From positions 1 through 22,356 of the forward strand of contig CAZJUB010000040.1 in NCBI GenBank assembly GCA_964549075.1: a stretch of DNA of 22,356 bases, given 5' to 3'. Position 1 is the stretch's first letter, and the number at the start of each line of letters is the position of its first letter. The stretch comes from an uncultured archaeon (GTDB lineage: Archaea; Asgardarchaeota; Heimdallarchaeia; Heimdallarchaeales; Heimdallarchaeaceae). The position numbers and the translations under genes were made by a program. Under the pieces are notes generated by a model. That model was not told the DNA's origin and did no database searches. It was given only the letters and a program-made list of their open reading frames with translations. Of this stretch, positions 3,603-21,337 are shown one piece after another.

Positions 3603-4661
3603 TTAGTCCTTCAGTCTTGGATCTAAAGCGTCTCTTAAAGAGTCACCGAGTAGGTTAAAACCTAAAACCGTGAAGAAGATGAACATCGCTGGAAACATCG
3701 GCATCCAAGGATATTCCAGTAAATCGTTCTGCCACTTGTTCAGGTCGTCCCCCCAGCTTACAGCGTTAGGATCTCCGAATCCGAAGAAAGCTAAAGCCGC
3801 AAACAGGAATATGGTGTTCGCAATACCTAGCGTTACTATAATGATCAGCGGTGCTAGTGAGTTTGGTAAGATATGTTTGAAAATAATTCTCATATCACTC
3901 GCACCCAGCGCTTTTTCCGCCTCCACAAAATCTTGTTGTTTCAGCGAGAAGAAGTTCGAACGTACTATCAGCGCCGTACCGCCCCAACCGATCAAACTAA
4001 AGAATATAACTACTACCGCGTACCGCCCACCCGGTATTTGCACGTCTTCGAATAACACAATGATGAATATCATCAATATGAATCCTGGCATGGAGTATAA
4101 CAATTCGATAATTCTTTGTAAAACATCGTCTATTACACCTCCGTAGAATCCCGCTATCGCACCTAAAACTGTTCCTATAATTACTGTTGTCATCTGACCT
4201 ATAAATCCAAGAGCTAATGAAACGGTTGCTCCAAAGAAAACTCTGGAAAGCATGTCTTGTCCAGTTCCATCAGTTCCAAATGGATGTAGAAATGAAGGTG
4301 GTAATTTAGCTTGATCTGCGAATTGGTATCTAGGATGGTTGAATAAAACGATAGGACTATCTTTAGGCATACCCGGTATCCACAGCTCGACATACAAGTT
4401 GTTCAAACTGATGGCGTTATTAGGGTCTCCCAGTATGATGTCTCTGTTTGTCAAAAATTGGTCGAATGATAATAATATCCAGGAAGTAAAAGCCATTAGA
4501 ATCAAGAATAAAACGATATAAAGACCAAGCATACCCATCTTGTCTTTCTTAATACGTCGCCAGACAATGGACCATTGTCCAGCACCTTTCATAGTCTCAA
4601 TTTCTCTTAATGTTTTTTCATCAAGTAGAAATTCTTCTCTTTGTTCGTCTGCAACTGCCAT
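3603..4661 (-). CDS. dppC: oligopeptide/dipeptide ABC transporter permease, DppC/OppC family
   Basis: HPFGTDGTGQDMLSR; EAA-loop variant DFVEAEKALGASDMRIIFKHILPN; C-terminal FNLLGDSLRDALDPR. Confidence 0.92.
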   Translation of the reverse strand: MAVADEQREEFLLDEKTLREIETMKGAGQWSIVWRRIKKDKMGMLGLYIVLFLILMAFTSWILLSFDQFLTNRDIILGDPNNAISLNNLYVELWIPGMPKDSPIVLFNHPRYQFADQAKLPPSFLHPFGTDGTGQDMLSRVFFGATVSLALGFIGQMTTVIIGTVLGAIAGFYGGVIDDVLQRIIELLYSMPGFILMIFIIVLFEDVQIPGGRYAVVVIFFSLIGWGGTALIVRSNFFSLKQQDFVEAEKALGASDMRIIFKHILPNSLAPLIIIVTLGIANTIFLFAALAFFGFGDPNAVSWGDDLNKWQNDLLEYPWMPMFPAMFIFFTVLGFNLLGDSLRDALDPRLKD

Positions 4662-19169: not shown

Positions 19170-20219
19170 ATGGAAGAGAAAGAAATCTCCTCAATTTCTA
19201 CAAGGAAAGATGATCACATTCTTTTGTGTCTTGAAAATGATGTTCAATATGATAGAATTACTAATGGCTTTGATGAGATTAAAATTGAACCTTCTCTTTT
19301 ACCTACTGTCTCTTCAGAAGAACTAAATTTATCTACAACATTCCTTTCTAAGGAAATTAATTTTCCTATAATTGTCTCTGGAATGACAGGTGGAAGTGAA
19401 AATGGAAAGGTGTTTAATGAAACCATTGCAAGAATTTGTAGTGAATTTCAGATTGGTATGGGAGTAGGTTCTCAAAGAGCAGCAATAGAAAATCCTGAAT
19501 TAATAGACACATACAAAGTTAGGCATATAGCACCAAATATCCCACTAATGGCAAATTTAGGAATAGCTCAATTTTTCAAAAATTATGGTCAAAAGGAAGC
19601 AAGAAAAGCTATCGCTATGATTGGCGCAGATGCTTTAGCTATACACATTAATCCTTTACAAGAATTTATTCAAGCTGAAGGTGATGATTCTTTTATAAAC
19701 ATCTCCTCAAAAATTCATGAACTTAAGAATGATTTTGAACTACCTTTGATAATCAAAGGCATTGGAACAGGTTTAACAAAATCCGATGCAAGAAAATTAT
19801 CGGAACTCAATGTTTATGCTGTTGATGTCGCTGGAGCTGGTGGAACAAATTGGTCTAAAATAGAATCTTATCGCAACGATCAAGTTAAGTACCTTTCTGA
19901 TAAATTTCTTAATTGGGGAATATCAACAAAAGATAGTCTTCTAAATATGGTTAGTTTCACAGAGAATAAAAATACTAAAATTATTGCTTCTGGAGGTATT
20001 TGGAACGGTTTTGATGCAGTAAAAGCATTACTTTTAGGTGCTGATTATGTTGCTTTAGCTTTACCGATATTAAGGGCTATTGGAACAGGGGGAATAGATG
20101 AATGTCGACAATTTCTCTCTTCATACATATTAGAGATGAAAGCTGTTATGACAATGTTGAATCTATCAGATTTAAGGGAATTAAAAAAAGAAAGGCATAA
20201 AATACTAGACAAGATATAA
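19170..20219 (+). CDS. fni: type 2 (FMN-dependent) isopentenyl-diphosphate delta-isomerase
   Basis: RKDDHI, GMTGG, GVGSQRAA, HINPLQE, GAGGT.W..IE, ASGGI motifs. Confidence 0.93.
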   Translation: MEEKEISSISTRKDDHILLCLENDVQYDRITNGFDEIKIEPSLLPTVSSEELNLSTTFLSKEINFPIIVSGMTGGSENGKVFNETIARICSEFQIGMGVGSQRAAIENPELIDTYKVRHIAPNIPLMANLGIAQFFKNYGQKEARKAIAMIGADALAIHINPLQEFIQAEGDDSFINISSKIHELKNDFELPLIIKGIGTGLTKSDARKLSELNVYAVDVAGAGGTNWSKIESYRNDQVKYLSDKFLNWGISTKDSLLNMVSFTENKNTKIIASGGIWNGFDAVKALLLGADYVALALPILRAIGTGGIDECRQFLSSYILEMKAVMTMLNLSDLRELKKERHKILDKI

Positions 20220-20221
20220 TT

Positions 20222-20278
20222 TCAGTCTAACTATGATTCATCATTGAGCGAAGCTCTCTGTAATGCCTTGTTCATCCT
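20222..20278 (-). ncRNA. box C/D methylation-guide sRNA, dual guide, predicted targets in 23S rRNA H69 and H70/71
   Basis: Minus strand: AGGAUGA (C) - ACAAGGCAUUA (11 nt) - CAGA (D') - GAGCUUCGCUCA - AUGAUGA (C') - AUCAUAGUUAGA (12 nt) - CUGA (D). Both guides are complementary to conserved LSU rRNA sequence (recalled). Confidence 0.82.
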
Positions 20279-20326
20279 TTTGTCTATTTTCAATTACACC
20301 TAATTATCTTTTGTGATTGAAATTTT

Positions 20327-20366
20327 ATTGGTAGATACTTGTCAAGATTGGTAGATACTTGTTAAG
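20327..20366. repeat. 20-bp tandem duplication (19/20 identical) spanning the stop codon of the M50 gene
   Basis: attggtagatacttgtcaag / attggtagatacttgttaag. Confidence 0.9.
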
Positions 20367-21337
20367 AATTTTGGATTTAATATAAATGACACTATAACTA
20401 AAGCCAAATTAATTCCAACAAGGATGAAAAATGCAACTTTACTCCATTTTAAGATTTTTTTGCCATCAAATTGCCATATTGGAATACAATTGAATAGAGC
20501 AATCAATCCGTTAAACTGAGCAACAAGAATGAAGATGTTAGGCACACCCCAAATCCCAGTCATAGCTAATGGTCCAACTAAACCTGCTACTGCGTATCCA
20601 CTGTAAGTCAATAAACCAATAATAAGACTTATTGTACCGATTACTGCATTTGTTGCTGGGCCTGCTACTGAAACTAATCCTATGTCTTTTTTATTCATCT
20701 GACGTTTCAAAGGAACTATGGATACAAAACCAGGTACTACTAAACCTATCCCAATAAGAAGTGTTAGAAATGTTAACATCAGTCCTCTGACCCATAAAAT
20801 ATAACGAGCAAATTGACCTTTTTTAATAGCTACAAACTTGTGTGCAAGTTCATGTGGCAAAAACGCTGTTCCAACTAAAATAGCTGCAATAGCAAAACCC
20901 CACCATCTATTTTTAGTACTTATAATAAATTGGTAGAAACCAAAAACAAGAACAATTAAAGCAAATCCAAAGAGGATGTCGAGAACTTCGTTACCCAATG
21001 AAAAAAGATCTCCAGAGGCTGTAAGACGTTTTTCAATGAACTCTTTCTTGCTCTTTTCATCAGGAAAATACACTTGTTCTTGAGCATTAGCTTGTTGTTG
21101 AGCTGCTTGTTGTGCAGCTTGAGCAACTCCATAAGCAATCCTACGCATGACTTCTTCGGGTCTAACTTGACGTTGTGCACCTTGTGCACCTTGTGCACCT
21201 TGTTGTGTCCCTTGTCTTAAAGAAGGACAATTATGTGCTGGGGCATCTCTGTGTTTCTGACAAAAAGAACCTCCACAGTAACGACAGTAGAATAAAATAT
21301 CGGCTTCAGTATTGCACTGGGGGTATTCACATTTCAT
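20342..21337 (-). CDS. AN1-type zinc finger fused to site-2 (M50) intramembrane metalloprotease
   Basis: C-x4-C...CRYC...FC..H...H.C AN1 pattern; HELAH; AGP..N; FNCIPIWQFDG. Confidence 0.9.
   Translation of the reverse strand: MKCEYPQCNTEADILFYCRYCGGSFCQKHRDAPAHNCPSLRQGTQQGAQGAQGAQRQVRPEEVMRRIAYGVAQAAQQAAQQQANAQEQVYFPDEKSKKEFIEKRLTASGDLFSLGNEVLDILFGFALIVLVFGFYQFIISTKNRWWGFAIAAILVGTAFLPHELAHKFVAIKKGQFARYILWVRGLMLTFLTLLIGIGLVVPGFVSIVPLKRQMNKKDIGLVSVAGPATNAVIGTISLIIGLLTYSGYAVAGLVGPLAMTGIWGVPNIFILVAQFNGLIALFNCIPIWQFDGKKILKWSKVAFFILVGINLALVIVSFILNPKFLTSIYQS
21173..21199. repeat. 9-bp in-frame tandem repeat (ttgtgcacc x3) encoding GAQ repeats
   Basis: Three perfect copies plus a degenerate flanking copy in the Q/A/G-rich linker. 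Confidence 0.85.

Follow-up and report, generated by a model that had tools for sequence, protein, structure and literature searches.

The 22,356-nt stretch of DNA examined here (the window) is contig C40 of the archaeal assembly G000, which comprises 3.23 Mb in 217 contigs at 32% GC and is 89.7% complete. On its minus strand, at positions 20278-20222, the window very probably carries a separately transcribed gene for a double-guide box C/D small RNA (sRNA) of ~57-60 nt, a judgement that draws on the letters of the DNA and on their comparison among genomes. Both guides match the 23S ribosomal RNA (rRNA) gene of the same genome at neighbouring sites, one of which lies in the loop of helix 69. 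The sRNA is a further member of a well-known gene class that has not been catalogued for this archaeal group.

All four boxes were read in the order C-D'-C'-D on the minus strand, in agreement with a preceding sequence-only reading of the locus, whose account of box order, spacing and guide lengths was confirmed. Box C, AGGAUGA (DNA AGGATGA), occupies positions 20278-20272 and departs once from the consensus RUGAUGA, with G in place of U2. It is followed by a D' guide of 11 nt, ACAAGGCATTA (RNA ACAAGGCAUUA), at 20271-20261 and by box D', CAGA, at 20260-20257, which likewise shows a single departure from its consensus CUGA (U2 to A). A D'-C' spacer of 12 nt (20256-20245) leads to the canonical box C', AUGAUGA (DNA ATGATGA), at 20244-20238, to a D guide of 12 nt, ATCATAGTTAGA (RNA AUCAUAGUUAGA), at 20237-20226, and to box D, CUGA (DNA CTGA), at 20225-20222. 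Guide spacers of archaeal box C/D RNAs measure ~10-12 nt, and the guide lengths, 11 and 12 nt here and 10-12 nt across the copies in the family, fit this spacing rule.

The 23S rRNA gene of the same genome (G000:C65:1287-5521) carries AATGCCTTGT at gene position 2721 and CTAACTATGA at gene position 2694, which are perfect 10-nt matches to the D' and the D guide, respectively. The D' guide pairs with gene positions 2721-2730 in a duplex with a predicted energy of -14.1 kcal/mol, and the D guide pairs with positions 2694-2703 in a duplex with a predicted energy of -13.0 kcal/mol. Each guide forms 10 perfect pairs with the organism's own 23S rRNA, more than the 9 bp that serve as the criterion in the accessible part of Dennis et al. 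(PMC4644070), and both duplexes include the rRNA nucleotide facing the fifth base of the guide, counted upstream from its box (N+5). The sequence-only reading had expected duplexes of 9-11 bp at two rRNA segments about 25 nt apart; both segments, UAACUAUGA and AAUGCCUUG, are present in the host 23S rRNA, each paired over 10 nt, and the two target sites are 27 nt apart. Its E. coli numbering of the predicted methylation sites, 1913 and 1940, held up in an alignment to E. coli rrlH. Counted upstream from box D, the fifth base (U at 20230) lies opposite A2697, which corresponds to E. coli A1913 in the helix 69 loop, within the motif UAACUAUGA. The fifth base before box D' (C at 20265) lies opposite G2724, which aligns with position 1940, a U in E. 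coli. In an rRNA without a 681-nt insert situated upstream, these two target positions would be 2016 and 2043. The helix 69 loop is located at the subunit interface and contacts the A-site transfer RNA (tRNA). As the 5' guide pairs with the downstream site and the 3' guide with the upstream site, both duplexes can form at once. A 16S rRNA gene was not found in the G000 assembly.

The four boxes might have come together by chance, as short motifs may in intergenic DNA rich in A and T; in favour of this, the boxes are short and two of the four are imperfect. A strict four-box pattern, however, matched only this locus when both strands of the whole genome were searched, and matched nothing in each of five shuffled genomes. 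A match of at least 10 nt in the 23S gene was reached by 3003 of 199,811 random genomic 12-mers (1.5%), and shuffled versions of the guides reached 10 nt in 99 of 20,000 trials for the D' guide (0.5%) and in 219 of 20,000 trials for the D guide (1.1%). Genome-wide, the two target 10-mers have 7 and 6 occurrences, roughly as many as chance would give, and are found as neighbours only in the 23S gene. The matching of the two guides to adjacent rRNA sites argues against coincidence, and the conservation of the sRNA across five genera, described below, already contradicts it, leaving this explanation with next to no probability.

A blastn search with the 106-nt region returned 21 of the 24 other genomes of the genus at E <= 2.2e-6, the remaining three (G006, G016 and G021) giving weak partial matches only. 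A covariance model built from 20 genus copies detected the sRNA in 27 of the 30 other genomes of the family, which represent five genera (21/24, 2/2, 1/1, 1/1 and 2/2 genomes). Both neighbouring genes, a zf-AN1/M50 protease gene upstream on the same strand and a convergent fni-like gene, were found in the same arrangement at 26 of 29 loci, where the encoded proteins are merely 48-77% identical to those of the window. Within the genus, the mean column identity is 0.93 for the RNA, with 41 of its 58 columns invariant, in comparison with 0.58 for the 3' flank and 0.55 for the 22-nt spacer that follows a TATA-like core upstream.

Among the 29 family copies, box C reads AGGATGA in 19, GGGATGA in six, ATGATGA in three and GTGATGA in one. 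Box D' is CTGA in 25 copies, CAGA in two, CGGA in one and CCGA in one; box C' is ATGACGA in 23, ATGATGA in four, ATGAAGA in one and ATGATGT in one; box D is CTGA in all 29. Since other genera show canonical AUGAUGA or GUGAUGA in the column of box C (4/29), the G in box C is a derived state of two genera, and this G presumably sits at the position that is flipped out in the kink-turn (K-turn). One relative, G011, has the same sRNA with an identical score on two contigs, in both cases near a contig end (G011:C23:16541-16614 and G011:C27:19802-19875), which may reflect either a duplication made in assembly or a genuine second copy.

Upstream of box C, a promoter-like element, ATCA-CAAAAGATAATTA, is located at 20301-20317 on the minus strand and is visible as a conserved word in the genus rows of the alignment. 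Its TATA-like core, AAGATAATTA (20310-20301, minus strand), has a mean column identity of 0.99 among 20 genus sequences, and the conserved word extends to about ATCAAAAAAGATAATTA, with its centre ~27 nt before box C, a distance that stays fixed. The element is a putative archaeal TATA box with a B recognition element (BRE), and the distance of ~27 nt would place the transcription start at or just before box C. The combination of AGATAATTA with a following C box occurs only twice in the genome, which makes the promoter word unusable for finding more sRNAs. An inverted repeat around the TATA-like element was considered and rejected, as it is not kept in relatives. Downstream, a T-rich tract lies on the sRNA strand at 20183-20203 (minus strand), 19-39 nt beyond box D, with a run of seven T at 20189-20183; the tract is antisense to the end of the fni-like gene, whose coding sequence is on the other strand. 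It is a possible oligo-T terminator, in which case the 3' end of the sRNA would then be trimmed back to the ribonucleoprotein (RNP).

The same surroundings might be explained by a conserved intergenic element of another role, either as the 3' untranslated region or terminator of the zf-AN1/M50 gene or as a regulator that acts in antisense on the fni-like gene at its 3' end, with the rRNA matches being incidental. Such an element would be in a fitting place, since it lies 64 nt downstream of the M50 stop codon on the same strand, has a 3' flank that runs antisense to the last part of the fni-like gene, and occupies a conserved position; C/D sRNA genes that overlap the 3' ends of protein genes are also noted for Pyrobaculum in the accessible part of PMC6009581. 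Conservation, however, is limited to the boxes and guides and does not include the flanks, a conserved TATA-like element of its own precedes the RNA, and the RNA has no stable fold of its own. The same guide moreover recurs in unrelated contexts in other families, in one of which (genome G296) guide and rRNA differ in a compensating manner. We consider this explanation highly unlikely.

For a box C/D guide RNA, the spacer between D' and C' provides additional evidence. Right after D' it contains an internal hairpin (20246-20256, minus strand), consisting of GAGC (20256-20253), the loop UUC and GCUC (20249-20246); the arrangement in the family is GAGC, a loop of 3-5 nt and GCUC, followed by three unpaired bases and the GA of C'. 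The hairpin cells of the alignment are paired in 98.4%; shifting the 3' partner by 1-3 columns lowers this share to 27-52%. Four distinct sequences have U-A in place of C-G as the closing pair (GAGU/ACUC), and two closed genomes of another genus have the stem GUCU/AGAC at the same place, with three pairs changing together. The minimum free energy fold also predicts the D'-C' helix. The GA dinucleotides are in place, the covarying 4-bp stem follows D' and a 3-nt bulge precedes the C'-side GA, features that make C'/D' a predicted kink motif, and the 4-bp hairpin would give it a closed stem (K-turn) instead of the usual archaeal kink-loop (K-loop). The RNA alone is weakly folded (-6.6 kcal/mol, z +0.89), as expected for open guides.

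The rRNA targets are themselves conserved. Sixteen genomes of the family yielded the 81-nt rRNA stretch that holds the two sites, and it is identical in 14 of them; the D target is identical in all 16 and the D' target in 15. The D guide core, TCATAGTTA, is unchanged in all 29 family copies of the sRNA. The D' guide is kept in 22 copies, and its variants preserve pairing to an unchanged target through A-U or G.U pairs (UUAAGGCAUUU in G043, GCAAGGCAUUG in G045 and G046). In the other seven copies (G002, G005, G008, G012, G017, G022 and G044) an A-rich sequence has taken its place, and these seven replacements gave no 23S match longer than 6 nt, 16S and tRNA targets not having been searched. The comparison points to the helix 69 guide as the old, indispensable half of the sRNA and to the 1940 guide as a family-specific half that has decayed in one subgroup.

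Following the established mechanism of the family, L7Ae would bind both kink motifs (C/D and C'/D'), on which a dimer of Nop5 and two copies of fibrillarin would assemble. Each guide would pair with the nascent 23S rRNA, and fibrillarin would methylate the 2'-OH of the nucleotide that faces the fifth base of the guide, counted upstream from D or D'. The predicted products are 2'-O-methyladenosine (Am) at the A1913 equivalent and 2'-O-methylguanosine (Gm) at the 1940 equivalent, and two duplexes formed together on the same piece of pre-rRNA may in addition assist its local folding. This last point can be taken further, in that the RNA might be made and pair with pre-23S rRNA and act mainly or only as a folding chaperone for helix 69 and the strands that follow it, methylation being absent at one site, likeliest 1940, or at both. 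The binding of the two guides within so short a stretch would suit a chaperone, as would the finding that the D' guide can be lost, and the accessible part of Dennis et al. argues that double guides aid local folding (PMC4644070). A role without methylation nevertheless seems improbable, given that both duplexes are perfect across the N+5 position, that the guide lengths (11 and 12 nt) match the spacing with which archaeal guides serve in catalysis, and that the A1913-equivalent site is methylated in yeast; chaperoning and methylation are, besides, not mutually exclusive.

The guide for the A1913 equivalent was traced further in 400 genomes sampled from the phylum, using a pattern composed of a C' box, 1-3 nt, CATAGTTA, 2 nt and CTGA. 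The C'-guide-D pattern was present in 40 of the 400 genomes and the reversed control pattern in none. Thirteen matches were located outside the family, in one of two genomes of f6, all five of f25 and seven of 89 of f31-f33 (G079, G292-G296, G320, G322, G323, G332, G334, G385 and G386; L107-L118). All 13 fall within full C/D RNAs, in which the C box is canonical, the D' guide differs and C' is preceded by a short hairpin. The f31 copies have terminal stems of 4-7 bp in K-turn register, as judged by eye, and several D' boxes appear degenerate (CUUA, CCUA). The helix 69 region was recovered in six of the 13 genomes. In G296 (f25), the rRNA has G for the family's C at the position of E. coli 1910 and the guide has C for the family's G, so that the two differences compensate each other. 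With these matches, the A1913 guide occurs in at least four of the phylum's families, this one included. Family conservation, synteny, the TATA-like element, hairpin covariation and the compensating difference between guide and target together support the guide-RNA interpretation that the sequence-only reading had offered.

Several observations weigh against the assignment as a double-guide box C/D sRNA gene. An Rfam scan of the window, which the sequence-only reading had named as a check, gave no match at the gathering score. Under stricter filters, the covariance model found no copy in the 16 genomes of the order's three other families. Box C and box D' are each one position off consensus, and no conserved terminal stem in K-turn register that would close the C/D motif was found among the family copies; the AGACAA/UUGUCU flank pairing seen in this genome was rejected as a conserved feature, as it is not kept in relatives. 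An A faces a C at the duplex end in G041, G042, G332 and G334, at the second guide position from box D, and the loss of the D' guide in seven of 29 copies indicates that the 1940 site is not essential. A crude C...D scan with an rRNA match yielded 11 genome matches, most of them without C'/D' boxes, versus 0-2 in shuffled sequence, so few further candidates that a rich sRNA repertoire is not demonstrated here. Regarding the protein machinery, fibrillarin and Nop5 were not found in the 89.7%-complete assembly; L7Ae is present (93.7 bits). Fibrillarin and Nop5 are adjacent genes in all 40 relatives searched, and the gene that comes after fibrillarin in G020, a close relative, has its match in G000 at nt 35-433 of contig C195 (2151 nt). 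With this gene only 35 nt from the contig end, a contig break is the likely reason for the missing pair.

The sRNA sits in a 122-nt gap between two protein genes. The plus-strand open reading frame (ORF) at 19170-20219, the fni-like gene, matches Pfam FMN_dh and is compatible with a type 2 isopentenyl diphosphate isomerase, and 2 nt separate the end of box D from this convergent gene's stop codon (20217-20219, plus strand). With the fni-like protein as query, a search of genome contigs for related loci returned no relative. The minus-strand ORF at 20342-21337, upstream of the sRNA and on the same strand, has zf-AN1 and Peptidase_M50 domains. Two tandem 20-nt copies, 95% alike, extend across its stop codon (20327-20366). 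Within the same ORF, on the opposite strand, positions 20420-20435 (plus strand) are 88% identical to 20264-20279, which contains box C and the start of the D' guide; this inverted repeat is probably due to chance.

The 23S gene that holds the targets is 4235 nt long in comparison with the 2987 positions of the model. Its 681-nt insert at gene positions 1903-2583 (L001 3189-3869) contains a 185-aa ORF (L001 3282-3839) with a LAGLIDADG_3 domain (45.6 bits). The insert is absent at its junction in 10 of 12 23S pieces from relatives and present in G046, and G020 has an insert of different length; it looks like a mobile rRNA intron. A tie between this insert and the sRNA was rejected, because the insert stops 110 nt before the helix 69 target. 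A second insert of ~150 nt at gene positions 3747-3896 also occurs in G009, G014 and G020 and is absent in nine of the 12 relatives compared. Elsewhere in the assembly, G000:C18:14983-16092 encodes a eukaryote-like actin (Pfam Actin, 448 bits), and the same contig encodes a protein with an ESCRT-II (Vps25-like) domain at G000:C18:33287-33628 (77 bits), for which none of 14 control genomes gave a match. The actin and ESCRT-II matches indicate an Asgard-type host.

Box C/D guides are textbook knowledge in hyperthermophilic archaea and eukaryotes. The best C/D model match of the locus in Rfam is the plant C/D small nucleolar RNA (snoRNA) snoZ155 (RF00326), which aligns to 20207-20285 on the minus strand and uses the boxes together with the AGACAA/UUGUCU flanks. 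The score of this match, however, is 21.9 bits versus a gathering score of 43 (E 0.9), and the flank pairing is not conserved in relatives; membership in snoZ155 was rejected, the likeness being a sub-threshold, generic resemblance of boxes. A literature search found no paper on individual Asgard C/D sRNAs, a result that is not proof of absence, as subscription journals and phrases containing a slash were outside the reach of the search.

In yeast, Am2256 in the helix 69 loop is guided by snR63, and pseudouridine 2258 corresponds to E. coli 1915, as stated in the accessible parts of PMC2794176 and PMC5199042. By arithmetic, yeast 2256 then corresponds to E. coli 1913, so that snR63 and the sRNA of the window have the same predicted target, the adenosine of the helix 69 loop that lies two nucleotides upstream of the pseudouridine equivalent to E. 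coli 1915. No sequence or structure similarity between the two RNAs was detected, however, snR63 is absent among the Rfam matches to E = 10, and common descent is not demonstrated. SNORD46, which we take to be the human counterpart of snR63, is likewise absent among those matches. It might be proposed that the helix 69 guide is ancient and Asgard-wide and related by descent to snR63, that mark and guide predate the eukaryotes, and that the stem-closed C'/D', found in this sRNA as well as in the other Asgard copies, was an early step toward the architecture of eukaryotic snoRNAs, a proposal that we regard as doubtful. For the 1940 site, the accessible part of the published yeast list is empty between Am2281 and Gm2288 (PMC5199042), which leaves this site without a yeast counterpart there, the positions being converted by our own arithmetic.

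By its sequence, the sRNA fits the definition of an archaeal double-guide box C/D sRNA, and in itself it is an ordinary member of its class; its interest lies in a host group that is poorly charted for such RNAs, in a main target at a methylation site conserved in eukaryotes, and in the phylum-wide spread of the guide. The locus provides a concrete, conserved and testable Asgard guide for a helix 69 adenosine that is methylated in yeast, an entry point for RiboMeth-seq on relatives in culture, a seed alignment of an RNA family missing from Rfam, and a data point on the rRNA methyl marks common to Asgard archaea and eukaryotes.

Compared with the archaeal double-guide sRNAs of the sR families of Pyrococcus, Sulfolobus and Pyrobaculum, the sRNA of the window differs in its 12-14-nt spacer with a covarying hairpin and a predicted closed K-turn, in contrast to the short K-loop described as usual in the accessible part of PMC6009581. 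It also differs in the G at position 2 of box C in the genus, in the absence of a conserved terminal stem, and in a host that looks like a low-GC Asgard archaeon and not a hyperthermophile. The accessible part of Dennis et al. (PMC4644070) counts 262 double guides whose targets lie within 100 nt among 489 archaeal sRNAs, and describes the part of helix 69 around A1912 as a predicted hotspot of methylation in hyperthermophilic archaea. The sRNA of the window resembles those double guides in its four ordered boxes, its guides of 11-12 nt and its length of ~57 nt, in its two rRNA targets within 100 nt, one of them in the helix 69 hotspot, in its own promoter, represented here by the promoter-like element, and in a 3' end that abuts a convergent protein gene.

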